A DNA stretch of 64,000 nt from Candidatus Omnitrophota bacterium (lineage in GTDB: Bacteria > Omnitrophota > Gorgyraeia > Gygaellales > Profunditerraquicolaceae). Under the pieces are notes generated by a model. It made no database searches. It was not told the DNA's origin and was given only the letters and a program-made list of their open reading frames with translations. Below are positions 1,908 through 60,603 of the stretch, piece after piece. Numbering within the stretch: the stretch's first letter is position 1; each line of letters begins with the position of its first letter. The position numbers were made by a program, and so were the translations under genes. Location: contig JBAZKL010000003.1 in the NCBI GenBank assembly GCA_041650835.1, positions 227,682 through 291,681 of the forward strand, read 5' to 3'.

Positions 1908-3545
1908 TTAAGGATACGGGATAATGGAACGCTCCCGCGAATCCCTGTTCGCTCCTGGCGAGCGCCCGGCTTCCTGTTTATTATCCCACAAGACCAGCTT
2001 CTCTTTCAGCATTGCGGCTACTTCAGGGTAGGCCGCTGCCACATCAGTCCGCTCGAAAGGGTCCTGCGTTAAATCATACAGCTCAATTTCCTTCCGGGAG
2101 ATATTTTTTCCGCTGATAAATCCCCACCAGGATATTTTTTCCTGAAGCGCGGGGTCTTTTCTCCAGAGTAATTTCCATCGGTTCGTCCGTATGGCGATAT
2201 CATACGGCGGATACCGGTACTCAGGAAAAGTGCCGAAATATTCTTTGAGCATTTCCGGGTAGTGCTTTTTACTTTCGATCTTCGTGAAAACCTGGGGCAT
2301 AGCGATCATCTGATACCATTCCAATAAATACCGGCTCAGAACGAATTCCCAAAGAGGTATCCGTGAGGTATAGGCGAATTCATTTATCTGCGAAACATCA
2401 GTATTTTTGATAAGTGCCGTCACACTGCGGCCCTGGAACGATTCATCAAGGGGGATCTGCAAATAATCCAGCAACGTCGGCACAATATCTATACCCTGCA
2501 CCTGATGAAAGATCCTTTTCCCCCTGAATTTATTCCCGGGGAATTTAATGAGCAGCGCATTCTTAACCTCGGTGTCATAGATATCGTAATGCTGAAAATA
2601 ACCGTGTTCTCCCAGGTCCTCCCCGTGAACGGAATGCAGTATGATCAGGGTTTTATCCATCAGATCTTGCTTTTCCAACACAGACAACAACCGCCCGATA
2701 AACATATCGGTATACCGGATACCAGCGTCATACCGGGCGATGATAAATGCCACGTCTTCTTTGGTGAGGCGGTGCGCCGGCGAGAAATCACAATAATACT
2801 CCCCCCGGTAAATCCGGGACAGGATACCGATACCCATATAATCTTTATTCGCGTTTGGAAACGCGCCATACTTTCTGAAAAAGGGAGAATACCGGGGGGG
2901 GTCGAAAACTTTGCGATCGGCTTCCGGAACCATCCAACTGTAAGGCCAATGCACCGACCCCAGAGGCAGCCACAAAAAGAATTTTTTCTCTTTGTTGCGC
3001 TTGATCCATCCCAACGCATCCCAGGGAATGTCCCCATTCTTCCGAGTCGGTTCATACACGTCAAAATGCTTCTCGAAAACGCTGCGCGCAGGTATTAAAG
3101 CCCCGGTCCGGGATAGTTTAACATTCTTATAGAACTCTATAGAGCTTAAGAACGCGGCATTATAATAATCATAATACTTCAGGATTTCCGGCAGCCGCCT
3201 TCCGGTCACGTCTGCTTCAGAAGATTCAAACTCGATCATACCGTTCGCGCGGGGGTATTGCGCGGTAAGGATACTCATCTGGCTGATCGGCGTCAGATTC
3301 GCCTGGGTAATAAAATTTTCAAAAAGCACCGCCCGCTTGGCAAGGCGGTCGATATGCGGGCTCGTCTTGCGCCGGTAACCATAACATCCCAAATGATCAT
3401 TTCTTAACGTATCGATCGATATTAATATTACATTGGTGTATTCATGGACGGGAGTATTCACCAGGGCAGGCTCACCGGCAGTGACAGCTGCGCAGCCGCA
3501 GATAAAAAAAGACACGATAACCAAAAGGATGCCTTTTGCCATCAT
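1908..3545 (-). CDS. sulfatase-like hydrolase/transferase (alkaline phosphatase superfamily, Thr-nucleophile type), lipoprotein
   Basis: 545 aa; N-terminal FICGC lipobox-like signal; SIDTLRNDHLGCYGY metal-binding motif; Thr (TPISQ) replaces the Cys/Ser-x-P-x-R formylglycine motif. Confidence 0.65.
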   Translation of the reverse strand: MMAKGILLVIVSFFICGCAAVTAGEPALVNTPVHEYTNVILISIDTLRNDHLGCYGYRRKTSPHIDRLAKRAVLFENFITQANLTPISQMSILTAQYPRANGMIEFESSEADVTGRRLPEILKYYDYYNAAFLSSIEFYKNVKLSRTGALIPARSVFEKHFDVYEPTRKNGDIPWDALGWIKRNKEKKFFLWLPLGSVHWPYSWMVPEADRKVFDPPRYSPFFRKYGAFPNANKDYMGIGILSRIYRGEYYCDFSPAHRLTKEDVAFIIARYDAGIRYTDMFIGRLLSVLEKQDLMDKTLIILHSVHGEDLGEHGYFQHYDIYDTEVKNALLIKFPGNKFRGKRIFHQVQGIDIVPTLLDYLQIPLDESFQGRSVTALIKNTDVSQINEFAYTSRIPLWEFVLSRYLLEWYQMIAMPQVFTKIESKKHYPEMLKEYFGTFPEYRYPPYDIAIRTNRWKLLWRKDPALQEKISWWGFISGKNISRKEIELYDLTQDPFERTDVAAAYPEVAAMLKEKLVLWDNKQEAGRSPGANRDSRERSIIPYP

Positions 3546-17363: not shown

Positions 17364-17582
17364 ATAATGCGCGCTCCTTAAGCTTTTGGGCCAGAGAAAC
17401 CGGGCATGACTTACAGCAGGATCGTTTGCATAGCGCTTACTAAATCATATTATTATAACACATCGGAAAGACAAAAATAAGCTTAAACAAGATCGGGATT
17501 ATCGAAGAGCCATTAAGAAACAAAAGAAGATATAACCGGAGAATACATCAAGATGTTAATACTGAACTGTGAGGAATGGATC

Positions 17583-17690
17583 ACACTACCTTTGGTTTCC
17601 GACAGTAAATAAAAAAAGGAATAATCATAAAACGACTATCCCTTTCTTTTTAAAACTATTCAACTAAACACGGCTCTGGCTCGTTCATGA
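17583..17690. repeat. ~105-bp direct repeat copy A (CACACTACC...AACACGGCTCTGGCTCG)
   Basis: About 93% identical to 18088-18192; a shorter third copy of the 5' portion lies at 17806-17832. Confidence 0.8.
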
Positions 17691-17751
17691 GCGCATAACT
17701 TACGCGACCGAAGCAAGCGTAAGTTATATGCGCGAATGAATCCCGAGCTTC
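17683..17751. repeat. hairpin element, divergent member of the ...TTCATGA...TCATTCATCCCGAGCT family
   Basis: Inverted repeat GCGCATAACTTACGC / GCGTAAGTTATATGCGC followed by GAATGAATCCCGAGCTTCCC; shares the ATCCCGAGCT tail with copies at 28671 and 30806. Confidence 0.45.
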
Positions 17752-18087
17752 CCTTTCTTTACTATCAGGAGCGAGGGATCTGCTTCATTACGCTATGGAT
17801 TACACTACCCCTCGTTTCCAACAGTAAAACGAGAGAAACTCGGGGTTAATTCCCGACAATTAAAACGCGGGGAATTAACGGGGTCGACGGGATTTTCCTT
17901 CGACGCACTCGCTTGATTCAATTACAATCACTGTAAGTCGCTCGTTTGCTCAGGATGCATCCTCTTATACAAACAAAAACTCGCTGTTTGTGCCCGAATA
18001 ATGGGCAAACGACGCGAGTTAAATTATCTCAAAACAAAAAAATATATTTGTTCAGTAGTGAGTGAGCCCCGCTTTTGGCGGGGCGCG

Positions 18088-18192
18088 TCACACTACCCCT
18101 CGTTTCCAACATAAATAAAAAAAGGAATAATCATAAAACGACTATCCCTTTCTTTTTAAAACTATTCAACTAAACACGGCTCTGGCTCGTCA
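18088..18192. repeat. ~105-bp direct repeat copy B
   Basis: Near-identical to 17583-17690. Confidence 0.8.
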
Positions 18193-18231
18193 GAGCCTCG
18201 CTCAAGAGCCGTTGTTTCTTCCCTAAATGTT

Positions 18232-18268
18232 GCGAAAAACCATCTCCTTACGGTTGATGGTTTTTCGC
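18232..18268 (-). terminator. stem-loop (13-bp perfect stem GCGAAAAACCATC/GATGGTTTTTCGC) just 3' of tRNA-Asp, nested in a 78-bp palindrome (18209-18286)
   Basis: Perfect inverted repeat; U-rich 3' arm on minus strand; outer arms CCGTTGTTTCTTCC/GGAAGAAACAACGG. Confidence 0.4.
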
Positions 18269-18283
18269 TAGAGGAAGAAACAA

Positions 18284-18359
18284 CGGGGTCGACGGGATTT
18301 GAACCCGCGATCTTCGCCGTGACAGGGCGACGTGTTAAACCGAGCTACACCACGACCCC
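18284..18359 (-). tRNA. tRNA-Asp (anticodon GTC)
   Basis: Cloverleaf: acceptor GGGGTCG/CGACCCC, anticodon arm TCGCC-CTGTCAC-GGCGA, T-loop GGTTCAAATCC; no encoded CCA. Confidence 0.9.
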
Positions 18360-18385
18360 AAAAATACAGAAATTAGATCAAAGAA

Positions 18386-21303: not shown

Positions 21304-21360
21304 AATTCCAACCTTTATGAACGCTTATTTTGATTATCAAAATTTCAAAAGATAAGATAG

Positions 21361-21500
21361 TATTAAAGTCTAAAGATTAAAGTTCAAATAACCAAGGAAA
21401 ATTAAAGGCTTAAGGTTAAATTTTAAAATTACCTACCTGCCGGCAGGCAGGAACCTTAGCCCTTTAACCTTCCTTTGTTATTTATACTTTAGCCTTTAAT
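21361..21500. repeat. ~140-bp AT-rich palindromic intergenic element, copy 1 (centre CCTGCCGGCAGG)
   Basis: Arms ...AACCAAGGAAAATTAAAGGCTTAAGGTTAAATTTTAAAATTACCT / AGGAACCTTAGCCCTTTAACCTTCCTTTGTT... are mutual reverse complements; same element at 28531-28747 and 37871-38004. Confidence 0.8.
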
Positions 21501-21536
21501 CTTCATCAAGAGCCTAATAATTCCTGCGTTACTTAA

Positions 21537-22148: not shown

Positions 22149-22167
22149 GAATACACCTTAGCTTATA

Positions 22168-22211
22168 GTCCACGGTCAACAGTCCATAGACCATGGACCA
22201 TCGACTATCGG
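22168..22211. repeat. short tandem NGACCAT heptamer repeats between atpD and atpB
   Basis: GTCCACGGTCAACAGTCCATAGACCATGGACCATCGAC; the same GACCAT array occurs at 30950-30983 and inside pyrK (28945-28973). Confidence 0.6.
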
Positions 22212-28530: not shown

Positions 28531-28747
28531 TAAAGGCTATAGTATAAATTTTAAAGTATAAAGTCTAAATAACAAAGGAAGGTTAAAGATTTAAGGTTAA
28601 ATTTTAAAATTACCTGCCTCACCGGCAGACAGGAACCTTTGACCTTGAAATTTCCTTTGTTCTTTGAACTTTGAATGAACCATGCCTCAGGCGCTTATGG
28701 TTCATTCATCCCGAGCTCTGTCGAGGGTTAACCTTTAGACTTTAATC
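28531..28747. repeat. AT-rich palindromic intergenic element, copy 2, carrying a nested hairpin element (28671-28727)
   Basis: Same arms as copy 1 (…GGTTAAATTTTAAAATTACCTGCCTCACCGGCAGACAGGAACC…); right arm interrupted by TTGAATGAACCATGCCTCAGGCGCTTATGGTTCATTCATCCCGAGCTCTGTCGAGGG. Confidence 0.75.
28671..28727. repeat. hairpin element TTGAATGARCC-RTGCCTCWGGCGYTT-ATGGYTCATTCA + TCCCGAGCTCYGTCGAGGG, copy a
   Basis: ~95% identical to 30806-30862; 12-bp stem TGAATGAACCAT/ATGGTTCATTCA. Confidence 0.8.
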
Positions 28748-30805: not shown

Positions 30806-30862
30806 TTGAATGAGCCGTGCCTCTGGCGTTTATGGCTCATTCATCCCGAGCTCCGTCGAGGG
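30806..30862. repeat. hairpin element TTGAATGAGCCGTGCCTCTGGCGTTTATGGCTCATTCATCCCGAGCTCCGTCGAGGG, copy b
   Basis: See 28671-28727. Confidence 0.8.
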
Positions 30863-30949
30863 ATATCTCCTATCTGACATGCGACCTGAAACCTGCAGAC
30901 TGATCCTCCGATCTCCGGACACCCGATAGTCCCGGATTTCCGGTTCCCC

Positions 30950-30983
30950 GGACCAACCTTGACCATAGACCATCGACCATGGA
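30950..30983. repeat. tandem NGACCAT heptamer repeats immediately 3' of carB
   Basis: GGACCAACCTTGACCATAGACCATCGACCATGGAC. Confidence 0.6.
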
Positions 30984-34109: not shown

Positions 34110-34196
34110 AATCGTTATTATCGTTAGGTTCGTTAGTGCCGTTAGTTTCGTTCAACGGATTAAACGAATTTAACGGCACTAACGATATTAACGAAA
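34110..34196. repeat. tandem TAACGA(N2) octamer repeats forming the entire 87-bp spacer between Mut7-C stop and endoQ start; internally palindromic
   Basis: Minus-strand reading ...AACGAAACTAACGGCACTAACGAACCTAACGATAATAACGATT-ATG; related arrays precede pyrR (37448-37490) and rsmI (47755-47820). Confidence 0.7.
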
Positions 34197-36907: not shown

Positions 36908-37490
<583 letters not shown>

Positions 37491-37870
37491 ATCCCTCGCG
37501 CACACGCTTGCACGCTTCGGGATATTTCGGCCATACAACTTACGTTCGCTTACGCTCCGTGCTGCTCCGCTTCCCTCGCGTTAACGCTTGAAAATTTCTG
37601 CGAAATTTTCTGCGCACGCTTCGGGATTAATTCGCAGACGGCCTTCGGCCTACACTTTACGTTCGCTTACGCTCCGTAAAGTGTCTGCTCATTAAAAAAA
37701 AACCCAACGGCTTATTATGCGGTTGGGATATGATTTTTTAAGGTCGTGAAGCATTTTTCTCTACCTTGCCGGCTTCTCATGAGCCAGCTTAAAGGCCTCT
37801 TTGTATTTAAATAAATATACCACCTCCGGGGGCGTTTGTCAAGGTAAATGACAAGGATGAGGATGACGGA

Positions 37871-38004
37871 AAAGTTTAAAGGATAAAGCTTAAAGAACAA
37901 AGGAAAATCAAAGATTAAAGGTTAAATTTTAAAATTACCTGCCGGCAGATAGGAAGTTTAAGAATTAAACCTTAGACCTTTAACCTTCCCTTGTTATTTA
38001 AACT
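37871..38004. repeat. AT-rich palindromic intergenic element, copy 3 (centre CCTGCCGGCAG)
   Basis: ...AAGATTAAAGGTTAAATTTTAAAATTACCTGCCGGCAGATAGGAAGTTTAAGAATTAAACCTTAGACCTTTAACCTTCCCTTGTT... Confidence 0.8.
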
Positions 38005-38116
38005 TTAGCCTTTATCATTACCCCTGTTGCTAAATAATAAAAAGAAGGGGTGCTCAAGAGACGTCCTATGGGGGCTGATAAACCAAAGGGCGGGAACACC
38101 CCTCCTGAACTGCTTA

Positions 38117-41100
38117 TTATTCTATTATCAACGGCTCCTTAGCCGTAAAAGCGATCCTCGCAAGAGCAACCTGCAGGTCGCCCGCCGGCTTATCCGATTC
38201 CAACAAAGCCAGGAATTCCCTGAAAGCCGCTTCTGTAGGCTTAAGCTGATCCTCTTCTAACCGCAAGATATCCGCGATACAGGAAAGTACTTTATCTACC
38301 TGCGGATTAATATCGCCTTTAACGCAGCAAGCCTGCAAATATTCCTTGATCCTGTCGCTGGCAGGAATGATCCCCGCCTGGATCATGCCCTGTATCTGCT
38401 GCCATTCTTCATCGAGATCAATATTTTCCAGGCGGTTCAAAGGCGGCATAACGCTCATTCCGGGAGTATTCATCGGCTGCGTGACAATAGGGAGTGAGCG
38501 CATATCAATACCTCCCTTTTTAATCGGGCTTGAAGATCGCGGCTGTGCCGCACTTTCAGAAGCCGCTACGGCAGTATCGAGTTGCGCCGCTATCGGGCCG
38601 AAAGACCCGTCATTTGCATTGACGATAATAGATGGCGGCTCATTATCCGGCTTTACGTTTATTCTTCCGATGAGCATATACGGTGCTGACAACTTTAAAT
38701 TAGAGAAATCCCCCCATTGATTACTTAAAAATTCAAAAACATTCGGGAATATTTGATCATTTTCTAACGCCCCGCTGTCCCGTAATTGGGATGTCAATTG
38801 ATTGCAAGCTTTTGCTGTCATTGAACCAACCATGGAATAAAAAATATTCCATTTAGCGGCTACTTGAACTTTATCCTCGGCCTCATCCACTTCACGCGGA
38901 TTATCAACATATATGCCTATATCAATATCGCTGAATTCCGAATCATTGCTCCCTTTAATAGCTTTATCTTTAAGCCTGCCTCCGGTCATATAGATCCTTA
39001 TTTCTCCGGGGCGTTGAACACCTATGCTTATAAGATACTTCTGCGCTTCTTGCGCGATCAACTGCCCGGCCCTCAATAAATGATCGCCGCTAAAAACTGT
39101 AACAAAGCTGCGGGAGGAGTTCCTGACTACCGGATCGGAGGAATCCATCTGCTTCCGGGTGAACTCGAGCATATCCTGTATCCTGGTCTTCACCGCCGCC
39201 TCTTCCTCGGGAGTTACCCCTTCAAGAAATTCAGCATCTCCCGTATTTGCCATCGGGCTGCTGCTATGAACGCTATCGGTACGGAACATGGTAAACATAG
39301 TCCGCTTCGAGGCGTCGACATCCCAATCATCGACAATAAGCTGTATGACTTTAAGCCCGGGGACAAAGAATTTCCGGCTATCCACTGTATTAGCGATCAG
39401 GGCGATCCCGACATGCGACAAATGCCCCTCTATGCCGGACAAAAGGCGCTTATAATCGGTGTCGCCTATTTCATGAGCTCCGTCAAACTTGACCTGAGCA
39501 TCATAGACCGTATTAGGAGAATTAAAATAGACGAAATCATATTCACCGGAGAGCATGTCGAATTCCCTGCCGCGCTCGACTTTATGCACGAAAACTTCCG
39601 AATTCCTGCTCCCGGGAAAAAGCAGGTCAAGGTTAAACACCGTATTATCCACCGCTTCTTGAAGTATATCGATAGTGTCCAGATGGATCTTTAAATTATT
39701 GGATCTTGCCCAGGCATACGCCGTTAATACATCGACCCCGGTCCCTGAACCGATAACTAACACCCGGATATCGTCTCTGCCCGCAGCCCGTAAGTGCCGG
39801 GCGACAGCAGCCATCGCCCGGGGGCTTTGGATGAACCTGGAAGAATGTAAAGAAAGCCCGTAATCATTGACCGGAGAATATACCGCTTTATCGCGCGCGA
39901 TCACGCCTTTACCGGTCAGGGTCATTAAAAGGCGGTAGGCCTCAAGGTCATTTACTCCTCCGACGACCTGATAGCCGTTTTCATCTATTATTTTTTCCAA
40001 AGCAAGGATCTCCTGCTTTACCTGCCCCACCGGCCGGCGAAGGATCCTGCTCACATAGCCTGAGGCGATCGGCGAGCCGGCGGAACGGGTAGAAAAACGC
40101 TTTGCCCTCCTGAGCCATTCGGAAGGCTTCTTTTGATCATTCCCGTCGAGAACTTCCACAATTGCGGAATCTTTTGAATGCACCAGCAGGATATCACCCT
40201 GGCTGCCAAGCGCCTGCAGAAAGAGGTCCCCTTGCGCTGCTTTTTGCAATTGCTCTACGCCCAAATGTATCCCCGGAACACCATTTTCCGAGATAAGGAG
40301 CGATCTTTTTCCTTGCGGATCCCAAGCTTTGAGCTTATCCACTGCCCAGGCAAAATCATCCATGGAATTGGTGTCGACGACATACCCCAGATTGCCCTGG
40401 GGAGCGGCTACCACAAAACCATAAGTAGCGACGGGGTGGCTTTTATGATTACGAAACACGATGGTGATGCCCAATCCTTTATCAACAAACTCTATCTCAT
40501 CAAAAGCGTTTTTCTCGAAAGCGTCTTCAACCGGCTCATTCGCCAATAAATCCCGCGCCCCTTGCCGGGACAAACTTTGAGCCTCCTCAAGAGGAACGCT
40601 CTCCCAGGCCTCTGCGCCAAGCAGGTAAGCCGCGATGACCTCGCTTAATTCATCTCTTACTTCCCTGGTCATAATCAAGTCGAACGCATTGATCTCTTTA
40701 TTGGCATTTCGCACGATAAAACCGATATCATTACCTCTCCCGTTCTTTATCGCTTCCTTTTTTGCTTCAGCATATTTCTCAATGATGAACTGCACAAAGC
40801 CGGCATTATGGTCGGCGTGATTATGCGTCAGTATCCAGCGCGCGGGAAGTAAATTCCTTTTTTTGAGATTCGCGTACGCTTCAAGAGAAGGATCAACAAA
40901 AATACTTTCTTTCCCGACATTAATAAGGAAATTGGTCACGTCTTCTTCCGACAAGGCGTCATGAACGCCCATGAACGTGACCGAAACTTTATCCGCGGGC
41001 CGCAGCTGATACTCCTGGAGCTGCTCCCGGGTAAAATCGCCTGTTTTATGGATATGTTCATCGGTTGAAGTATCGCGCTTACGGGAGGCGACAGCGCGGG

Positions 41101-44100
41101 CTTCCGCTATATCCCCGAGCCGCTCTACAAACTTATAATTTTCACCGTCCTTAACGACCTCAACCGCCACATCTATGCCGTCTTTACCTAAGACCGTGAA
41201 TTCACTCCTGTTTTCTAAATTAATAATATTATACGGATTGTCTTTCTCCAGCGCCACCGCGCTCATGAGCGAAGAAACAAAACCGTTACTTTTCTTAATA
41301 GCGACATCCAGGATCATCTGTACCGCTAAAGCTTCCCGCGCGTTATTGACGATAATATAGGTCGGCCTGACAGCCAAATCGCTCACCAGCCGGAACCCTT
41401 GAGCCCTTAACGACGCTTCTTCTTGTGGCATAGGCGCGATCTTCATAGCCTCATAAAACAGGTTACCAAAAACAACAAACTGCAGGTCAGCGCCGTCATA
41501 GCCCTCTCCAAATTGAGGAATAATGATCTGGGGGGTTTCTTGTATTTTGTTGGTAAAAGAGGTTAGGCCGTTTGCGACCAGAAGTTTTGAAACCGTAAGG
41601 CTCTGGCGCGACTCCCCCTCCGCCTTATTTTGCAGCGGCGAAGCGGAAGTTCCCGCTGATAGAGCAGAGCCGGCGGCAAAGGATGGCTGTTGCAATAAAG
41701 CTTCTTGATAATCTTTCAAACTTTGGATATCATCCTTAAGCATTTCTCTATCAGATGTATCTAACGAATCGCCAAACTCGCGGGATATCCTTGCCAACGC
41801 TTTCTCAAGCTTATCAATGACACGTTTAACCTGTTCGGCTTTTAAAAGTTCTCCTTGATACATTGCTTTTGGCGGCCAGCTGTTTTGGTCATATACAAAC
41901 AAAGGCTCAAGATATTCATTTTTTAATTCGCGTAACCTGCTGATCGCGACAATTGCTTTTTCTTTCTGCACAACATCTCGTTCAACGCTTTGTACCGTTT
42001 CAAGCCTCGGGGCGCTTCCGTAAATCGAAGACTTATCTCCCATGCTCAATAAACCAGGATTAAACGCCCATTCGTTATTCAATCCGGACGGATTATCCTT
42101 ACCAAATTCGCTAAAAGAAACAAACCCATCAAATGAAACGCTTAAACTGCCTCTTCCTGCGGGTAAAATCACTAACCCAACCTCGGATGAACTTTCAATT
42201 TCAGGCTCAAACTGGTCCGCAGCTGCGTCAATAATAAACCACTGAGCCCCCACTCTGAATAATCCATACGCATGATAACCCGGCTCTCCCTTATTTTTTC
42301 CCGTATTAAGCAAAACCGCGTTTTCTTTACCAAGGGCTTCCTGCAGCCACTGAATAACATCCCCGTTCCTGATCCAGCAGTCATAGCGCACCGCGCTGCC
42401 GACATCCCCATCTCTCGAATAAGCCTCTAATTTATCTTTTGTTTCTAATTTTTCTTTTACTGCCTTAAGCGCAGCCAATATCTTATCCAACGATAATTGA
42501 TCAATCCCTTTTAAAAGATCTCCCCAGCGCGCCATAAAATTATCCGGGGTAACCTTAACTCCCCGCAAAAAGTTCCCAAATGTTTGCCAATCAAGGGACG
42601 CCTCAGCAGCCTCAAAAGAAGCATTAACCGGCGAACCGGCAGAAACCTGGTTATCAACAGGGGAAGAAGCATTCTTTACGGCAAGATTGGAATAAACCGT
42701 ATCAAACAAACCGCCGGCATTAACAACGCTATCGACATATCCCGCGGGCGCCTTATCTGCCGGCTCGAACATGGCATCAATTGCCGAAGCAAGTTCGCGT
42801 ATGCTTTTTTTCAGTATTTCTCTTTCCTGAGATTGTATGGCATAAAAACCCTCCAATGCCTCAGCGATCGCCGCAGGGTCATCTTCGGCTTTCCCTGAGT
42901 CTTCAAGATAACCCTGGACATATTCTTCTTTTGTATGAGAGGCGTCGTAATCAAAAAATGAATACCCGATATCTTTTTCGGACAGCATTGTATCTCCCGC
43001 GTTATAGGTCTGCAGGAAATGATGGTCCGTAGTTACCGAATCACACACTTTATGGATTATTGCCAGCCCCGCGGCATACCGCGAAACAAAATCATCCAGG
43101 ATTATTTGGGCGGCGGTTTTTGAAGCACCTAGTGGCTGCCGCTGCTTTTCCAATACGGAGCATTTTTCCATAAAAAAGTCCTTAAAGCGCCAAAGCTCGG
43201 CGATCCGCCAGGGAGCGGCAGAGGCATAAACAAACAACCTCATGCGCCAGATATACGCATTCCAATCTCCCGAATAATCACCCGTACGAAAGGAGAGCTC
43301 CGGGAAATCCGAAAGCGGGACCAAAAACACGCCTGACGGCCCCTGCCCTTGGGTTACTTCCCAATACCCGCCCTTCTGCTGCGCCTGCCGTAAACGCAGA
43401 TCGCTGCTTAAATCTTCGTCGTTATTGCCGCTCTTATCTATCGAATCAATGATTATCTGCAGGGGGGAAATATTTAACGCGGGGGAGAAAAATATATCAT
43501 CGGCAACGACTTGCGCTTGGCCTTGTTCCCGAGCCGTCAGCCGCACTTTTTCTAAACCTTCCTGAAAGAGCCGGGCCTTCTCTGCCTGACGGATAACCTC
43601 CTCATTCATCACGCTTCCCTCGATCACATTATCGGCGTTTCTCTCGCGTAGCTCAAAGCGCACGCGCCCTTGCGTATTAGCGCCGCCGCCTTTAACGCTC
43701 ACGAATGGTTCACCGTCGCCTTCTTCATAGGGCGTGCTTTCTACGCGCTGCTGGAGGCCTCCCATCTTACTATATACCTGCAATGAAAAACAGAGCCCAT
43801 CGGCATACCCAAGGCCGGGAGGTATTTGATGGAGCCGTTTAAGCGCTTCAAAAAGCTTAGCGTTGCCTTGAATAATAACACTGCCGTCAGGCCCCTTAAA
43901 ATCAGAGATAGGAATGACCACGCCTTTTCGCACGGCGTCCCTGATCGCGGCGGTATTGTAATAATTCTCAACTTTCCCCAGGGTATAGATATTCTCGGGG
44001 ATCACCTCATGCCCGGCAATGATCAATTCTCTATAGGCCTGAGCGGAAACAACAGGGTCTTCGTTAGCGATCCGCGCGATAATTTCATTAAGTTTATCGA

Positions 44101-46507
44101 CCGTTTTACTGCCCAAAGGAGAAGACGCCTTTTCGGGTACCGACAGCGGTGAAGAACCCTTCTTTATTTTTGCCCCCGGCTTTGCCAAAGGCTTAACCGC
44201 GGCCTTTACCGGTTTTTTAACGGGCGCCTTGACGGAAGCCTTAACTGCTTTCGCGGCCGCGGGGCGCTTTGCCGCAACGGGAGCAACTTTCGCGGGAGAT
44301 TGTTTTGCCGGCGGCTTAACGGCATTATTTGCCGCCGCGGGGGGTTTCTGCTGAACAGAGGCCCCCCGCGCGTTCTTTAAACTCGCTTCAACTACGGTGC
44401 CGATAACAACATAATCACTGGTTTCCTTCGGGATCTTCTTGTTCCAGATGGTCCCAAAACCAGCGTTATAAACAGCCAAGCTCAGCTGTAAACGGGAAAG
44501 ATGCGGGAATTTTTTAATGAGGACATTAACATACCTTTGCACCCTGAAGCAGTAAATGGCCGCGCCTAATTCATAATGTGCTTTCGCGGGAAGTTTATCC
44601 ATCATCGCCCCGAAGGGATCTTGCTGTTGAGGGTTATTTTTCAGTTTTTTATATATATCGGCGTATTTTTGTAACGGCTTTAAAAGCTTATACGCTGACT
44701 TTTCCTCACTCGTCATTTTATTTTCTTTTTTCTCTTTATCATTCTTTTCTTTTTGTTCCAATTCATCTACGAACCTCATTAAGTCCCTGAAAGCTATTTC
44801 CCTGATCTGCATCAACCCCTTTGCCCCCTTGCCTGAGGTAGCGGTGAGGGACTGCGTTGAGTTTTCAATACCGGCAATGATCTCCAGATGCACAGGCTGT
44901 ACCTCTTGGTTGATCGCATTGCCTGACTTGCCTTTTTCTACCATATTCCTGAAAACTGCCCGGGCTTCATTCGGCAGCTTGCGGTTATTTACCATGCCGA
45001 TAACCGTTTGGGCCCTCTGCCGGGTGGCTATGTCCATTACGCTAAAGCTATTCGCGGGCAAAGCGGCAGCGCCTGACTGCGGCACGGGCCTTCTCAGTAT
45101 TTGATTATTTTTACCTGCCTGTTCGGCGATCGGCGCGGGAGAAAAAAGCACAGCGAGAAATAACCCGATCGCGGTAAGCTTTTTAAACTGATCGCCTATG
45201 TTTTCTAAAAATGTTTTTTGGCGTTTGTCAGGCGAACGGGAAATCGCGGAAGAACTCGCATTTGCTCCCTGAGGCGACGTATCGGGCTGTTCTATAAATA
45301 CAGGAACATCGCTTTTTAATTCAATTCGGGCCGATGGATCTTCCAATGTCCCGCCTTCCGCGAAAAATGATATGCCTTTATCATTGAAGCGGGCCAGAGG
45401 AGAACTGCCGGCGCGCGAATGCCCGACGATCGAAGACACCACAGGTGACGACGCTCCCGGGGCAGGCACCTGAAAATCGGTCAAATTCATCCCTCCGGAA
45501 AAGTAACTTCTGATCGATCGCCCCATAGGCGTAGCAACGGGGATCTTAAGATTATATTCTCCGTCTTTAAACGACCGCCGGTATTCATTAAAATAGGTGC
45601 TCTTTGACCAGGGGACCCGAGAAGACAACCCGTTTAAATTCTTTTTGTCGATCATCCAGGAATAAAGGCCGCCCTTGCCGTAAAAACGCGCTTTAAACCA
45701 TTGCGCCATGATCAATGAATAATATACCTGCCGCAAAGGCGCGTATCGTTTGGCTGTATTAACCTCTTTAGTGATTTTAGGAAGGATCTTTTCTCTGATA
45801 AGCGCTGAAGCGTATTCGTTTAAGGATTTAAGCCGTTCATCCTCAAAATTGTAAACGCTGGAGCCTTTGAGGTAATCCTGCTCCAGCATTACCTTAAGCG
45901 TTGCTTTATAGATATAGGCGTTATCGTCGGCCTCGCGGATAATGATCTCATGAGGGACGATCCACGGCCTGGTTAAGGTGGGAATGTTTATATTGTCCGC
46001 GCCTAAAAGTTCTTCCGCCTTTTTATATAATTTATCCCAGTATTCTTTTCCTTCGGGTGTTTCAGGCGAAGTATACTGCGCGGTATCCTTTTTAAGCTGC
46101 AGGTCCGCTTCCAGCAGTACCTTGCCGAGGTCGGTCCTCGCCAAAAAGGGGTCGATTATATTATCTTCGGCGTCCGGGCGTAAATTGACCCAGAATGAAT
46201 CATTAGGCAGGCTGATACCGATAAAGAAATAATTCAAAAGTGTTTTAGTCGTGTCTTCAAGGGAAGGCTTGTTTAAATTCCCGGCGTCGCCTTTATCCAG
46301 CAAAAGGTTAAAATTGTTATTCAGATTATCATACGAGAGGTAGCGTAAATGTAAGGGCCGGAATTTATCCTGAATAATTGAATTACGCAGCTGCGCGAAA
46401 TGGCCGGAAATATCCAACTGTCCGGAAACTTGCGCTAAACCGGTCTGCTCAAAGAAGAAACAAAAACAAAGCAAAAGCGAAATAAATTTAAATAATTTAT
46501 TTTTCAC
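38117..46507 (-). CDS. giant secreted multidomain protein (2796 aa): signal peptide; SLT lytic-transglycosylase domain; Ala/Pro/Lys-rich linker; Cys/His/Asp module; MBL-fold domain; NPPY-like SAM methyltransferase domain; Pol-beta-type nucleotidyltransferase domain
   Basis: Single uninterrupted frame. GLMQI (aa~564) and AVYNAG (aa~678) SLT motifs; PAKVAPVAAKRPAAAKAVKASVKAPVKKPVK linker (aa~715-800); YDCW...YHAYG...IIDAAAD (aa~1377-1427); THNHADH (aa~1895); VLVIGSGTGVDV + DFVYFNSPN (aa~2250-2332); TGGRL-x14-SDIDIGIYVD (aa~2508-2534). Confidence 0.8.
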   Translation of the reverse strand: MKNKLFKFISLLLCFCFFFEQTGLAQVSGQLDISGHFAQLRNSIIQDKFRPLHLRYLSYDNLNNNFNLLLDKGDAGNLNKPSLEDTTKTLLNYFFIGISLPNDSFWVNLRPDAEDNIIDPFLARTDLGKVLLEADLQLKKDTAQYTSPETPEGKEYWDKLYKKAEELLGADNINIPTLTRPWIVPHEIIIREADDNAYIYKATLKVMLEQDYLKGSSVYNFEDERLKSLNEYASALIREKILPKITKEVNTAKRYAPLRQVYYSLIMAQWFKARFYGKGGLYSWMIDKKNLNGLSSRVPWSKSTYFNEYRRSFKDGEYNLKIPVATPMGRSIRSYFSGGMNLTDFQVPAPGASSPVVSSIVGHSRAGSSPLARFNDKGISFFAEGGTLEDPSARIELKSDVPVFIEQPDTSPQGANASSSAISRSPDKRQKTFLENIGDQFKKLTAIGLFLAVLFSPAPIAEQAGKNNQILRRPVPQSGAAALPANSFSVMDIATRQRAQTVIGMVNNRKLPNEARAVFRNMVEKGKSGNAINQEVQPVHLEIIAGIENSTQSLTATSGKGAKGLMQIREIAFRDLMRFVDELEQKEKNDKEKKENKMTSEEKSAYKLLKPLQKYADIYKKLKNNPQQQDPFGAMMDKLPAKAHYELGAAIYCFRVQRYVNVLIKKFPHLSRLQLSLAVYNAGFGTIWNKKIPKETSDYVVIGTVVEASLKNARGASVQQKPPAAANNAVKPPAKQSPAKVAPVAAKRPAAAKAVKASVKAPVKKPVKAAVKPLAKPGAKIKKGSSPLSVPEKASSPLGSKTVDKLNEIIARIANEDPVVSAQAYRELIIAGHEVIPENIYTLGKVENYYNTAAIRDAVRKGVVIPISDFKGPDGSVIIQGNAKLFEALKRLHQIPPGLGYADGLCFSLQVYSKMGGLQQRVESTPYEEGDGEPFVSVKGGGANTQGRVRFELRERNADNVIEGSVMNEEVIRQAEKARLFQEGLEKVRLTAREQGQAQVVADDIFFSPALNISPLQIIIDSIDKSGNNDEDLSSDLRLRQAQQKGGYWEVTQGQGPSGVFLVPLSDFPELSFRTGDYSGDWNAYIWRMRLFVYASAAPWRIAELWRFKDFFMEKCSVLEKQRQPLGASKTAAQIILDDFVSRYAAGLAIIHKVCDSVTTDHHFLQTYNAGDTMLSEKDIGYSFFDYDASHTKEEYVQGYLEDSGKAEDDPAAIAEALEGFYAIQSQEREILKKSIRELASAIDAMFEPADKAPAGYVDSVVNAGGLFDTVYSNLAVKNASSPVDNQVSAGSPVNASFEAAEASLDWQTFGNFLRGVKVTPDNFMARWGDLLKGIDQLSLDKILAALKAVKEKLETKDKLEAYSRDGDVGSAVRYDCWIRNGDVIQWLQEALGKENAVLLNTGKNKGEPGYHAYGLFRVGAQWFIIDAAADQFEPEIESSSEVGLVILPAGRGSLSVSFDGFVSFSEFGKDNPSGLNNEWAFNPGLLSMGDKSSIYGSAPRLETVQSVERDVVQKEKAIVAISRLRELKNEYLEPLFVYDQNSWPPKAMYQGELLKAEQVKRVIDKLEKALARISREFGDSLDTSDREMLKDDIQSLKDYQEALLQQPSFAAGSALSAGTSASPLQNKAEGESRQSLTVSKLLVANGLTSFTNKIQETPQIIIPQFGEGYDGADLQFVVFGNLFYEAMKIAPMPQEEASLRAQGFRLVSDLAVRPTYIIVNNAREALAVQMILDVAIKKSNGFVSSLMSAVALEKDNPYNIINLENRSEFTVLGKDGIDVAVEVVKDGENYKFVERLGDIAEARAVASRKRDTSTDEHIHKTGDFTREQLQEYQLRPADKVSVTFMGVHDALSEEDVTNFLINVGKESIFVDPSLEAYANLKKRNLLPARWILTHNHADHNAGFVQFIIEKYAEAKKEAIKNGRGNDIGFIVRNANKEINAFDLIMTREVRDELSEVIAAYLLGAEAWESVPLEEAQSLSRQGARDLLANEPVEDAFEKNAFDEIEFVDKGLGITIVFRNHKSHPVATYGFVVAAPQGNLGYVVDTNSMDDFAWAVDKLKAWDPQGKRSLLISENGVPGIHLGVEQLQKAAQGDLFLQALGSQGDILLVHSKDSAIVEVLDGNDQKKPSEWLRRAKRFSTRSAGSPIASGYVSRILRRPVGQVKQEILALEKIIDENGYQVVGGVNDLEAYRLLMTLTGKGVIARDKAVYSPVNDYGLSLHSSRFIQSPRAMAAVARHLRAAGRDDIRVLVIGSGTGVDVLTAYAWARSNNLKIHLDTIDILQEAVDNTVFNLDLLFPGSRNSEVFVHKVERGREFDMLSGEYDFVYFNSPNTVYDAQVKFDGAHEIGDTDYKRLLSGIEGHLSHVGIALIANTVDSRKFFVPGLKVIQLIVDDWDVDASKRTMFTMFRTDSVHSSSPMANTGDAEFLEGVTPEEEAAVKTRIQDMLEFTRKQMDSSDPVVRNSSRSFVTVFSGDHLLRAGQLIAQEAQKYLISIGVQRPGEIRIYMTGGRLKDKAIKGSNDSEFSDIDIGIYVDNPREVDEAEDKVQVAAKWNIFYSMVGSMTAKACNQLTSQLRDSGALENDQIFPNVFEFLSNQWGDFSNLKLSAPYMLIGRINVKPDNEPPSIIVNANDGSFGPIAAQLDTAVAASESAAQPRSSSPIKKGGIDMRSLPIVTQPMNTPGMSVMPPLNRLENIDLDEEWQQIQGMIQAGIIPASDRIKEYLQACCVKGDINPQVDKVLSCIADILRLEEDQLKPTEAAFREFLALLESDKPAGDLQVALARIAFTAKEPLIIE

Positions 46508-47754: not shown

Positions 47755-47820
47755 CGTTGTATTCGTTATTATCGTTAGTTTCGTTATTGTCGTTTAATTC
47801 GTTAAACGAAATTAACGATC
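47755..47820. repeat. TAACGA(N2) octamer repeat leader immediately 5' of rsmI start codon
   Basis: Minus-strand: ...TAACGAATTAAACGACAATAACGAAACTAACGATAATAACGAATACAACG-ATG. Confidence 0.7.
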
Positions 47821-56567: not shown

Positions 56568-57902
56568 TTAGTGTTGAAGAACCTTGATGATCCTGTTAAC
56601 CTTGTCTAATAAGTATTCGTTCTTCTTGATCTCTGTTTTGATCTTTGAATGTGAATGTAAAACGGTCGTATGGTCCTTGCCCCCAAAAAAAGTCCCTATC
56701 TCCGGCAGGGATAATTCCGTTAACTCCCTGCTTAGGTACATCGCGACCTGCCGGGGCAAAACAATATTTTTATTGCGCTTTTTGGTTTTTAAGTCCTGCA
56801 GCGACATTCCGAATTCTTCTACCACGCAGCGCTGTATAAAATCAATGGTTATGGTTTTCTTGGTTTCTTTCAAAAGGTCTTTTAATACCTCTTTGACTAA
56901 ATCGAGCGTGATCGCCTTTTCTTCTAAAAGCGAATACGCGATCACCCTGATCAACGCGCCCTCCAATTCCCTGATGTTGGTTTTGATCAGCTGCGCTATA
57001 AAAAAGATGACTTCATCGGGGACGGTTATGGGTTCGCGTTCTATTTTCTTTTTCAGGATGGCCACGCGCGTTTCCAGGTCCGGCGGCTGAATATCCGTGG
57101 TAAGCCCCCAGCTGAACCTCGATACGAGCCGGTCCTGCAAATTGGAGATCTCCTTGGGCGGCCGGTCGGAAGATATAATGATCTGCTTATGCGCGTCGTA
57201 TAAGGTGTTAAAGGTGTGGAAGAATTCTTCCTGGGTCGATTCTTTCCCCGCGATGAAATGGATATCGTCGATCACCAGCACGTCGGCATGGCGGTAGCGC
57301 TGCCGGAACGCCGAGGTCGCGTGGTGCTGGATAGCGTCGATGAGCTCGTTGGTAAAGCGTTCGGAGGCGATATAGCAGATCTTCATATGGGGATTTTTAC
57401 TTTTGATCTGGTGGCATATCGCCTGTATTAAATGTGTTTTTCCCAATCCCACTCCCCCGTAAATAAAAAGCGGGTTATACGCTTTCGCCGGGGATTCGGC
57501 GACTGCCATTGAATAGGCGTGCGCGTGGCGGTTGGAATGCCCTACGACAAAATTTTCAAAGGTATAACGGGGATTCAGAAAAAGGCTGTCGGGAAGCTCT
57601 TGAATGGACGTTTTTATTTTTTCAAGCGTCGGCTTTACCGCGGACTCTTTTAATTTTAGATTTGTTTCGATACTAAAAGTAATATCTTCTTTGGTGGTTT
57701 GCTGGATCGCCTCCTGGATAATAAATTTATAATGTTTCTCTATCCAGTCCCGGAAAAAATTATCCGGCGCTTCCAGGATGAGCGTATGAGTGTCGCTCTC
57801 TCTCGGTTTTAAGGGGTTGAGCCATGTCTCAAAAACAGTTTCTCCCAGCTTGTTTTTTAAATATTCCGATACTGCCTTCCAGTCTTTATGGATATCGAAC
57901 AT
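56568..57902 (-). CDS. dnaA: chromosomal replication initiator DnaA
   Basis: 444 aa; Walker A GGVGLGKTHL, AAA+ and C-terminal DNA-binding HTH domain. Confidence 0.95.
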   Translation of the reverse strand: MFDIHKDWKAVSEYLKNKLGETVFETWLNPLKPRESDTHTLILEAPDNFFRDWIEKHYKFIIQEAIQQTTKEDITFSIETNLKLKESAVKPTLEKIKTSIQELPDSLFLNPRYTFENFVVGHSNRHAHAYSMAVAESPAKAYNPLFIYGGVGLGKTHLIQAICHQIKSKNPHMKICYIASERFTNELIDAIQHHATSAFRQRYRHADVLVIDDIHFIAGKESTQEEFFHTFNTLYDAHKQIIISSDRPPKEISNLQDRLVSRFSWGLTTDIQPPDLETRVAILKKKIEREPITVPDEVIFFIAQLIKTNIRELEGALIRVIAYSLLEEKAITLDLVKEVLKDLLKETKKTITIDFIQRCVVEEFGMSLQDLKTKKRNKNIVLPRQVAMYLSRELTELSLPEIGTFFGGKDHTTVLHSHSKIKTEIKKNEYLLDKVNRIIKVLQH

Positions 57903-58450
57903 AACTTTATCTCGAAGTTAGTCGTTGGCGAATGTCCTATGCACAATTTATGCACACCTTGAATAAGTCTGTGTACATCGACTAGTAACTCGGCCTGGTA
58001 ATGTTGCTTACGAGCCAATAAAAGGCGGGACACCGGGACAACGTTTGTGCAAGCCCTGCGACCTCAAAATAACGGGCTGTCAAATAACTCGTTTTGCAGT
58101 CAATCGCATACAGAATCCGCTCAAACCTTAAATCGTATGTTGTATTATACAATATTTTTTTCGGCAGTCAACAAAAATAAAAAGGCTTCCGGCTGGCGGG
58201 TGCCGGCTTAAAGGCGGCGGCGCGCGGCTCTTTTAAGAGGCCCTTTTAAAAAGGGAATTATCTTGACCTTCAGAATTTTATATGTTAGAATTGCACGAAA
58301 AGAAATATGGCTTCTTTTTTTCAGGCCTGATTTTCACTGGGATGAAACTATATGCATTGACTTATGTTATATTTGTGTTATAATTTTTGATTCATAAAAA
58401 ATCAATGCGGAATAACCCGTGTTTATCTAAACTAAAGGAGAGTTTTTAAC
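57903..58450. other. candidate chromosomal origin of replication (oriC) between divergent dnaA and rpmH
   Basis: DnaA-box-like 9-mers TATGCACAA (57938), TTATGCACA (57948), TGTGTACAT (57970), TTGTGCAAG (58045); AT-rich stretches at 58130-58185 and 58270-58440; gene orientation switches here. Confidence 0.6.
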
Positions 58451-58588
58451 ATGAAAAAACATCTTAAAACGCCGTCAAAGATTAAAGGGAAACGCTGTCA
58501 CGGTTTCCGTCAGAAAATGTCTTCCAAGGCAGGCAGGGACGTGCTTTCCCGCCGCCGAAGAAAAGGGAGAAAGAAACTCACGGTATAA
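58451..58588 (+). CDS. rpmH: 50S ribosomal protein L34
   Basis: 45-aa [48 protein letters not shown] (below ORF-track size cutoff). Confidence 0.9.
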
Positions 58589-58804
58589 ATGGCGCAAAAA
58601 CTCATTATTTATCTGCTGAGCTTTTATCAAAAGCATGTAAGTGGGTTGCTTCCTCCTTCCTGCAGGTTTATGCCTACATGTTCAGAATATACCAAGCAGG
58701 CCATAAATAAATACGGTTTTTTTAAAGGAGGCATATTGGGGGTAAAACGCTTGCTTTGCTGCCATCCTTTGAGTAAGAAGTCGGGATATGATCCTTTAAT
58801 ATAA
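58589..58804 (+). CDS. yidD: membrane protein insertion efficiency factor YidD
   Basis: 71 aa; YQKHVSGLLPPSCRFMPTCSEY motif. Confidence 0.85.
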   Translation: MAQKLIIYLLSFYQKHVSGLLPPSCRFMPTCSEYTKQAINKYGFFKGGILGVKRLLCCHPLSKKSGYDPLI

Positions 58805-58824
58805 AATTTTTCGGGAGAAACTTC

Positions 58825-60551: not shown

Positions 60552-60603
60552 AGAGAAAGAGAAAATGTTCCGCGTGGAACATTTTGTAACCTTATAAGGC
60601 GCA

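Follow-up and report, generated by a model that had tools for sequence, protein, structure and literature searches.

A family of small palindromic repeats, here termed family A, is present in three intergenic copies in a 64-kb stretch of DNA from a Candidatus Omnitrophota bacterium (contig JBAZKL010000003.1, positions 227,682 to 291,681). The window refers throughout to this full 64-kb stretch; an extra 20 kb of flank on the same contig was also analysed, so that ~84 kb were covered. It belongs to a 370-kb contig of metagenomic origin (ENA ERZ27247363), the proteins of which are listed at NCBI under a Candidatus Omnitrophota MAG. On balance we regard family A as a lineage-restricted, low-copy and structurally unstable non-coding palindromic repeat of the Omnitrophota, similar in kind to the enterobacterial repetitive intergenic consensus (ERIC) elements, the miniature inverted-repeat transposable elements (MITEs) and the REPINs. 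This view draws on the recurrence of one ~140-nt palindrome around an invariant core, and on the comparison of filled and empty sites at orthologous gene junctions in relatives.

Results

Three dispersed copies share an invariant core

A search of the window for the 21-mer GGTTAAATTTTAAAATTACCT gave exactly three hits, each on the plus strand (starts 21414, 28595 and 37920), and no match was obtained in 100 dinucleotide-preserving shuffles in which up to three mismatches were allowed. The copies reported in a preliminary description of this DNA are thus genuinely dispersed intergenic repeats at the places given there, and not a low-complexity coincidence. A profile search (nhmmer) with a family A profile recovered its three copies at E values of 1e-39 to 1e-44, and detected no fourth copy over the window and the 20-kb flank. 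Together with a repeat search it set the limits of the copies at 21358-21499, at 28540-28672 (resuming at 28728-28747) and at 37870-38015; each copy had therefore been correctly located, but the third, previously ended at 38004, runs to ~38015. Without the insert described below the elements measure ~135-150 nt, and are non-coding and below 200 bp. Similarity between copies 1, 2 and 3 spans ~140 nt and is not confined to the periodic parts, the order being the same throughout; the mean column identity is 65% over the whole region. Conservation is highest in a 23-nt block, AAGGTTAAATTTTAAAATTACCT, which is identical (23/23) in each pair of copies, the arms on either side being 60-86% identical. 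The GC content of the intergenic regions that host the elements is 0.30-0.35, compared with 0.47 for the window. That all three copies share one orientation, as had been noted, is borne out by the 21-mer, although the chance of such agreement is 0.25 and it is not significant alone. With respect to the core formula offered earlier, copy 1 contains an additional CCTA.

Architecture and folding

Each copy is an imperfect palindrome along its length, with arms of ~40-52 nt that are reverse complements of each other, as previously proposed. RNA folding of the gene strand supports this for every copy, giving -58.6 kcal/mol (z-score, z, -8.5) for copy 1, -34.3 kcal/mol (z -4.0) for copy 2, insert excluded, and -53.8 kcal/mol (z -7.9) for copy 3. 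The order of parts on the gene strand is a 5' arm (~40-52 nt), a small GC hairpin of which each copy has its own variant (Table 1), the invariant UAAUUUUAAAAUUUAACCUU and the complementary 3' arm. The invariant core is predicted to be unpaired in the fold, and within it lies a perfect 12-bp palindrome, AATTTTAAAATT, that has no other occurrence in the window. The perfect centre attributed to the family, CTGCCGGCAG, is found only in copies 1 and 3; in copy 2 the corresponding sequence is CCTGCCTCACCGGCAGACAGG, which has a loop.

All six arms repeat with a period of 7 nt (lag-7 autocorrelation of 0.54-0.65, z 3.4-5.4) and are therefore degenerate TAAAGNN/NNCTTTA heptamer arrays, with a TAA stop each 7 nt. 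Since the arms are periodic the ends of the elements are diffuse; the outermost arm match of copy 1 pairs ATTAAAGTCTAAAG with ATTAAAGGCTAAAG as reverse complements at 13 of 14 positions. The GC hairpin at the apex is itself a mirrored array, in this case of tetramers, (CCTG)2CC/GG(CAGG)2. Arm typing distinguished two arm variants, of which the better kept, AACAAAGGAAGGTTAAAG, is identical between copies at 36-37 of 40 positions. In copies 1 and 3 this arm is found right of the core, and in copy 2 left of it. Among the paralogs, therefore, the core has changed orientation with respect to the arms, as it has between the orthologs considered below.

Orthologous junctions in related lineages

Orthologous loci, which carry L numbers here, were obtained via homologues of AtpD and TauE. 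In the genome under study atpD and atpI are separated by 233 nt, and the junction is filled both here and in L023, L024 and L025, three independent sample assemblies of the closest relative (AtpD identity >90%; coding DNA 83-93% identical at the nucleotide level). In L021, L022 and L026 (AtpD identity 82%, 72% and 66%, respectively) the overlap of the two genes is 4 nt, and in L016 (AtpD identity 84%) a gap of 57 nt without family A separates them; the empty sites in L016 and L017 measure 57-69 nt. The overlap or 57-nt gap in these more distant relatives indicates that copy 1 was gained within this lineage, as a derived feature of a junction whose genes were once coupled in translation. L026, the 66% relative, is without family A, and its junctions are tight.

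In the closest relative the element is present between near-identical flanks, and its apex is inverted, such that it matches the antisense of copy 1 (alignment score 112 versus 66; nhmmer 69 versus 50 bits). In addition, 32 nt of its 5' arm are deleted between two TTAAAGGCT repeats, and the fold of this ortholog is no better than that of shuffled sequences (z -0.6). At the pyrK-tauE junction, L027, which belongs to the closest-relative lineage and derives from the same sample as L023, displays family A arms and a significant hairpin (z -4.3). This ortholog of copy 2 is without the GC mini-hairpin and without the insert, and its A/T core has ~3 substitutions; overall, the cores of orthologs differ from those described here by ~2-3 substitutions. 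A different AT-rich hairpin is found at pyrK-tauE in L016 and L028-30. Its 5' end, GTAAAGGTTAAGGATAAGAAGTTA, resembles GTAAAGGTTAAAGAATAAAGCTTA of L027, and judged by this resemblance it is probably a diverged homologue of the L027 element.

The cores are thus the same among the three paralogs and different from the orthologs, and L027 is without the GC module, which is a signature of concerted evolution through gene conversion of the apex. Core identity may be kept by arm-templated gene conversion or by a lineage-specific constraint. The same GC palindrome occurs alone, without family A, between atpB and atpD in L021.

An independent assembly of the same organism, the Logan SRR8542065 contig (L002 942-993), breaks off within the 5' arm of copy 1, with 15 nt left before the apex is reached. 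Extra copies elsewhere or polymorphism of the apex in the population could account for such an end, which proves neither.

A separate mini-element is nested in copy 2

The preliminary description had noted that copy 2 carries a second element, and this is indeed the case. The insert, termed D7 (28673-28727), is 55 nt long, reads CCCTCGACAGAGCTCGGGATGAATGAACCATAAGCGCCTGAGGCATGGTTCATTC on the gene strand and folds into two hairpins (-22.8 kcal/mol, z -3.9). A further copy of D7, at 30808-30862, is 85% identical and shows one compensatory stem change. Both D7 sites are empty in L027 (~2899-3042 and 794-909), and D7 is therefore a separate, recently inserted mini-element; it had no Rfam match. The nesting had been taken to argue for mobility, which is justified for D7 by the empty sites but does not extend to the ~140-nt family itself.

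Potential activity at the RNA level

A consensus scan flagged copies 1 and 2, but not copy 3, as each carrying a terminator-like site, comprising a GC hairpin and a U-tract on the gene strand; the apex stems have predicted energies of -12.9, -10.3 and -4.4 kcal/mol in copies 1, 2 and 3, respectively. All three apexes are in the terminator-like orientation here although the arms of copy 2 are swapped. In this orientation the GC stem followed by UAAUUUUAAAAUUU would constitute a weak, leaky intrinsic terminator between cistrons, and a transcript that reads through would fold into a hairpin with arms of ~40-52 nt, which could be a good substrate for RNase III or could protect 3' ends. An effect as terminator or stabilizer in this genome, as suggested previously, is plausible from these predictions. 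A conserved terminator role is not supported, as at the copy 1 locus of the closest relative the apex is reversed and the hairpin has decayed; copy 3, moreover, sits behind an apparent terminator. Hairpins that read as canonical terminators are present elsewhere in the window. It is plausible that effects on RNA are side-effects of a selfish or neutral repeat, and most likely any such effect is a tolerated or opportunistic by-product rather than a conserved regulatory device.

A promoter inside the core was considered and rejected. TAAAAT is present, but no acceptable -35 element accompanies it on the gene strand, and only weak 9/12 matches were found, in the 3' arm of copy 2.

Distribution

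Exact 20-mer scans for the core in the GTDB representatives (one genome per species), JGI metagenomes and IMG/VR returned unrelated single matches, located in coding sequence or elsewhere, or none. With copy 1 as the query, BLASTN found no match in collections of plasmids and phages. In Rfam 15 only four tRNAs in the window pass the gathering threshold and no family covers the elements; at E values up to 1 they match only generic long-hairpin models of miRNA precursors, far below threshold. A full-text literature search found no paper on palindromic or intergenic repeats of the Omnitrophota.

Genomic context

Pfam assignments confirm the neighbours named in the preliminary description. Copy 1 is flanked by genes for subunits D and I of a V-type ATPase and lies inside the V-ATPase cluster; copy 2 is flanked by PyrK and TauE/TSUP genes and lies between pyrK and tauE-pyrD-pyrF; copy 3 is flanked by a 2796-aa open reading frame (ORF) and PyrR, and is in a true inter-operon gap. 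The coordinates of the elements and their parts are listed in Table 1.

Table 1. Family A copies, their apex modules and the nested element D7 (positions within the window)
Feature	Position	Strand	Description
Family A copy 1	21358..21504	-	Between atpD (stop 21537) and atpI (start 21303); gene-strand hairpin, arms ~52 nt
Copy 1 invariant core	21412..21434	-	23 nt, plus strand AAGGTTAAATTTTAAAATTACCT; includes AATTTTAAAATT; unpaired in predicted fold
Copy 1 apex mini-hairpin	21432..21451	-	CCUGCCUGCCGGCAGGUAGG then UAAUUUUAAAAUUU on gene strand; terminator-like, -12.9 kcal/mol
Family A copy 2, main part	28540..28672	-	Between pyrK (stop 28750) and tauE (start 28504); arms swapped relative to core compared with copies 1 and 3
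Copy 2 apex mini-hairpin	28613..28633	-	CCUGUCUGCCGGUGAGGCAGG + UAAUUUU; not in orthologous L027 element
D7 in copy 2	28673..28727	-	Separate 55-nt two-hairpin element within copy 2 arm; not at L027 orthologous site
Copy 2 outer arm remnant	28728..28747	-	TTAACCTTTAGACTTTAATC, cut off by D7 insertion
D7 second copy	30808..30862	-	Between carB and yjbQ; 85% identical; L027 orthologous site empty
Family A copy 3	37870..38015	-	Between apparent terminator-like hairpin of giant gene (~38040-38110) and pyr promoter (37842-37814)
Copy 3 apex mini-hairpin	37937..37952	-	UAUCUGCCGGCAGGUA; weak, -4.4 kcal/mol; not flagged as terminator-like

Downstream of copy 3 the strong sigma-70-like promoter at 37842-37814 matches its consensus at 11 of 12 positions (TTGACA-17-TATATT, with a TG extension). 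The sequence that follows aligns to the PyrR-binding model RF00515 over its full length at 33.9 bits (E 0.009), which is sub-threshold against a gathering score of 54. The minus-strand segment 37694-37842 thus comprises the promoter and the PyrR-binding match, the latter ending in what reads as a canonical terminator hairpin, and is probably a divergent Omnitrophota pyr leader. The apparent small RNA downstream of copy 3 is this sub-threshold leader, and is not part of family A. Between the leader and pyrR (37500-37690) there are ~200 nt of GC-rich non-coding DNA with the direct repeats TTACGTTCGCTTACGCTCCG and CCCGAAGCGTGC, each present twice. The giant 2796-aa ORF (38117-46507, minus strand) has no Pfam match at E values up to 1e-5, and a relative carries a 3728-aa gene at the same position.

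The replication-origin region (56568-58824) is also in the window. Its genes gyrB, dnaN and dnaA are encoded on the minus strand and yidC-jag-parA-parB on the plus strand; the spacer of 922 nt that separates dnaA from yidC is presumably oriC. The family A copies are 20-37 kb to one side of this spacer, on the co-oriented gene strand. A palindrome resembling parS, TGTTCCGCGTGGAACA, is located at 60566-60581, just upstream of parA; it was the sole site found in a search with the parS consensus and is outside the family A elements. Next to a tRNA and a gene of the 23S-rRNA-IVP family, 1 kb of non-coding DNA (17364-18385) contains several terminator-like hairpins as well as a 79-nt direct repeat whose two copies, at 17606-17684 and 18112-18190, are identical.

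Other periodic arrays and hairpins

A second repeat family in the window consists of arrays of the nonamer (TAACGANNN)n on the minus strand (34110-34196, 37448-37495 and 47755-47820), with a 9-nt periodicity (z 4.9-6.1). These arrays, which contain the motif TCGTTA, run directly into the ATG of three unrelated genes, a 413-aa ORF, pyrR and a TP_methylase gene, with no visible Shine-Dalgarno sequence, and could be leader or translation-control elements. Mirroring turns the copy at 34110-34196 into a hairpin of 87 nt (-43 kcal/mol, z -8.2). Hairpins are also found between atpB and atpD, at 22149-22211 here and at 9931-10000 in L016, 232-285 in L021 and 296-382 in L022; the structure is kept and the sequence replaced. 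The hairpin is built from ATRGTC heptamer arrays here and in L016, is CCCTGCCTGCCGGCAGGCAGG in L021, the same GC palindrome as the family A apex, and is an unrelated stem in L022. Between carB and yjbQ (30900-30983, minus strand) ATGGTC heptamers are followed by CCGG-rich units of 7-8 nt, an arrangement that is partly conserved in L027. ATRGTC heptamer arrays are thus present at both atpB-atpD and carB-yjbQ, and the 66% relative L026 shows no such arrays. These arrays suggest that the clade tends, through mutation or selection, to assemble hairpins between its genes from short periodic motifs, a tendency specific to it of which family A is the multi-copy example.

Discussion

The data presented here lead us to favour the view that family A is a lineage-restricted palindromic repeat. 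Its copies were gained at operon junctions which in relatives are tight, and once inserted the DNA is unstable: the apex inverts between the arms, slippage between heptamers deletes segments of an arm, and both D7 and the GC mini-hairpin insert into an existing element. It should be emphasized, however, that several observations weigh against this view. No target-site duplication could be recognized in the flanks, the intergenic alignment with the L016 empty site being unreliable; a TA at the termini follows trivially from the sequence of the arms, which open with TAAAG and close with CTTTA. The best-conserved part of the element is its centre and not its termini, which is atypical of MITEs driven by a transposase, and Pfam revealed no transposase-type domain among the genes of the window and its 20-kb flank. 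All three copies, furthermore, fall within 17 kb of the ~84 kb covered, and the core scans of the genome and metagenome collections gave only unrelated single matches or none. The potential role at the RNA level is likewise weakened by the closest relative, whose copy 1 ortholog has a reversed apex and a hairpin that has decayed, by the interruption of the U-tract at the apex (UAAUUUU), and by copy 3, in which the stem is weak (-4.4 kcal/mol) and the element follows a hairpin that reads as a canonical terminator of the giant gene. The gene strand folds 8-15 kcal/mol better than the other strand in copies 1 and 3 (12 G.U versus 3 A.C cells). This asymmetry was considered, and dropped, as a sign of selection at the RNA level; it reflects a single inherited arm arrangement that arm typing shows to be reversed in copy 2.

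It might instead be proposed that the hairpins are selected by the host as intercistronic signals for processing, stability or attenuation, in which case family A would be one sequence version, kept by need and not by spread. In keeping with such a role, a hairpin of different sequence is found at atpB-atpD in each of the four closest lineages (this window, L016, L021 and L022); an AT-rich hairpin of 110-140 nt occupies pyrK-tauE in four lineages (here, L027, L016 and L028-30), with folds that are kept (z -2.7 to -4.7) while the sequences have diverged; and the three apexes in this genome retain the terminator-like orientation despite the swapped arms of copy 2. The copy 1 ortholog in the closest relative, however, has lost most of its hairpin (z -0.6) and has an inverted apex, with no compensation seen, and more distant relatives, in which atpD and atpI overlap and the pyrK junctions are tight, need no hairpin there. 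In L026, which is more distant, the atpB-atpD junction folds only weakly (-19.9 kcal/mol over 125 nt). Furthermore, conversion from arm to arm can keep the arms complementary without selection, and a generic hairpin does not need an identical, unpaired 23-nt core. We therefore consider host selection an unlikely explanation for the family. Less likely again is an origin in situ without transposition, in which slippage of heptamers and mirroring by template switching would have produced independent arrays that ectopic gene conversion then homogenized. Unrelated motif-plus-mirror arrays (TCGTTA nonamers, ATRGTC heptamers and CCTG tetramers) do exist in the window and in relatives, signs of slippage deletion and of conversion are clear, and neither a target-site duplication nor a transposase was found in the DNA covered. 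Nevertheless, the three copies are alike over ~140 nt, non-periodic parts included and in the same order, and the change from a 4-nt overlap of atpD and atpI to 233 nt with a whole element is easier to envisage as an insertion than as gradual growth.

The conservation of the core raises the further possibility of a binding site for a protein at the DNA level, with AATTTTAAAATT and the adjoining GC palindrome being bound as duplex or cruciform by a nucleoid protein, a recombinase or an origin-proximal factor, and the arms serving only to extrude or present it. The core is identical at 23 of 23 positions compared with 60-86% in the arms, contains two adjoining perfect 12-bp palindromes and survives inversion, which would make its function independent of orientation; all copies, in addition, are 20-37 kb from the dnaA/oriC region. 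A precedent is provided by the Correia elements, which have a central IHF site (PMC2229807). Set against this, AATTTTAAAATT occurs nowhere else in the 64 kb and no known operator was recognized in it, the core of the L027 ortholog has three substitutions and no GC palindrome beside it, and identity between paralogs combined with difference from orthologs is what gene conversion alone would be expected to produce. Compared with the CodY box and with the IHF and dif sites, the core shows no convincing match. Proximity to the origin, moreover, may reflect the survey of a single 84-kb stretch. A binding site is, accordingly, a doubtful reading of the core, and we rate it as less probable than the origin in situ. 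We give the least credence of all, as a highly improbable proposition, to a scheme in which the apex acts as a recombinase-independent switch between heptamer arrays, flipping between terminator-like and non-terminating states and thereby toggling downstream cistrons such as those for the membrane subunits of the V-ATPase. The motif-plus-mirror hairpins of the clade (heptamer, nonamer and tetramer) would then represent an undescribed, self-generating modular class of intergenic element, and the 23-nt core would be read by a dedicated protein.

With respect to known repeat classes, the lineage-restricted palindromic repeat that we favour has its closest counterparts among the MITE-like repeats of bacteria, which are below 200 bp, AT-rich and bounded by inverted repeats, and yield transcripts with long stem-loops (PMC2229807). 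The earlier suggestion that family A is MITE-like is supported by its size, AT-richness, terminal inverted arms and filled or empty orthologous sites. No target-site duplication, defined termini or cognate transposase was recognized for family A in the ~84 kb, where there are three copies. ERIC elements, also known as IRU (127 bp), share with family A an imperfect palindrome of ~130-140 bp over the whole length, a location that is intergenic but inside transcription units, and a dependence on orientation of any effect on neighbouring mRNAs; ERIC influences mRNA stability, and RNase III acts on NEMIS (PMC2229807). The likeness to ERIC is, however, architectural only; the host of family A belongs to another phylum, the arms are heptamer arrays, no TA duplication has been shown and three copies were seen. 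The studies of Hulton (1991) and of Wilson and Sharp (2006) reportedly describe in ERIC a highly conserved central part and larger variants that arise through internal insertions, as in family A. The Correia/NEMIS elements of Neisseria are also AT-rich, have 100-155 bp with inverted arms around a central module that bears a motif of the protein-binding type, form co-transcribed hairpins proposed to be RNase III substrates, and may carry promoter-like or terminator-like signals (PMC2229807). Unlike family A, with its diffuse termini, no visible duplication and no IHF consensus, Correia elements have defined terminal repeats of 24-26 bp, a TA duplication and hundreds of copies.

The REPINs mobilized by RAYT (REP-associated tyrosine transposase) consist of two inverted units in a hairpin, and display elements inserted in elements and the evolution of families within a genome; the same source cites the existence of small dispersed repeats (SDRs) (PMC3116915). 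REP (repetitive extragenic palindromic) units, however, are short GC-rich palindromes near a RAYT gene; family A has AT-rich arrays, and no Pfam domain of a RAYT or IS200-like Y1 transposase was found among the genes of the window and its 20-kb flank. The proposal that the elements are like REP or BIME (bacterial interspersed mosaic element) repeats is not supported, as they are ~140 nt long rather than 20-40 nt and no RAYT gene was seen in the 84 kb; GC-rich sequence is confined to the 12-20-nt apex, the arms being AT-rich and ~50 nt. According to the work of Mazel (1990) and Elhai (2008), cyanobacteria are said to contain short tandemly repeated repetitive (STRR) sequences, intergenic heptamer arrays, and tiny palindromic modules that insert into arrays and MITEs, of which family A is reminiscent in its heptamer arms and small nested palindromes. 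STRR sequences are plain direct tandem repeats of high copy number; family A, by contrast, is degenerate, mirrored into a long hairpin and provided with a conserved apex. Copies 1 and 2 share with rho-independent terminators a GC stem and a U-rich tract on the gene strand, but differ from them in that the U-tract is interrupted, the module lies within a longer hairpin and its orientation is not kept in the closest relative; copy 3 is weak in addition.

Family A is thus a low-copy, new family of a known kind of element, whose dynamics are instructive rather than surprising. At a practical level such elements may break assemblies, and could be mistaken for regulatory RNAs; the Logan contig ends in copy 1. 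This study documents small palindromic repeats in the Omnitrophota, a phylum known only from metagenomes, and the relatives provide an unusually clear view of change after insertion, which includes an apex flip, slippage deletions, a nested insertion and identical paralog cores. Family A elements widen operon junctions that are otherwise translationally coupled. If the predicted hairpins do modulate termination or processing, the ratios of the products of the V-ATPase cluster and of the pyrimidine pathway would be affected.

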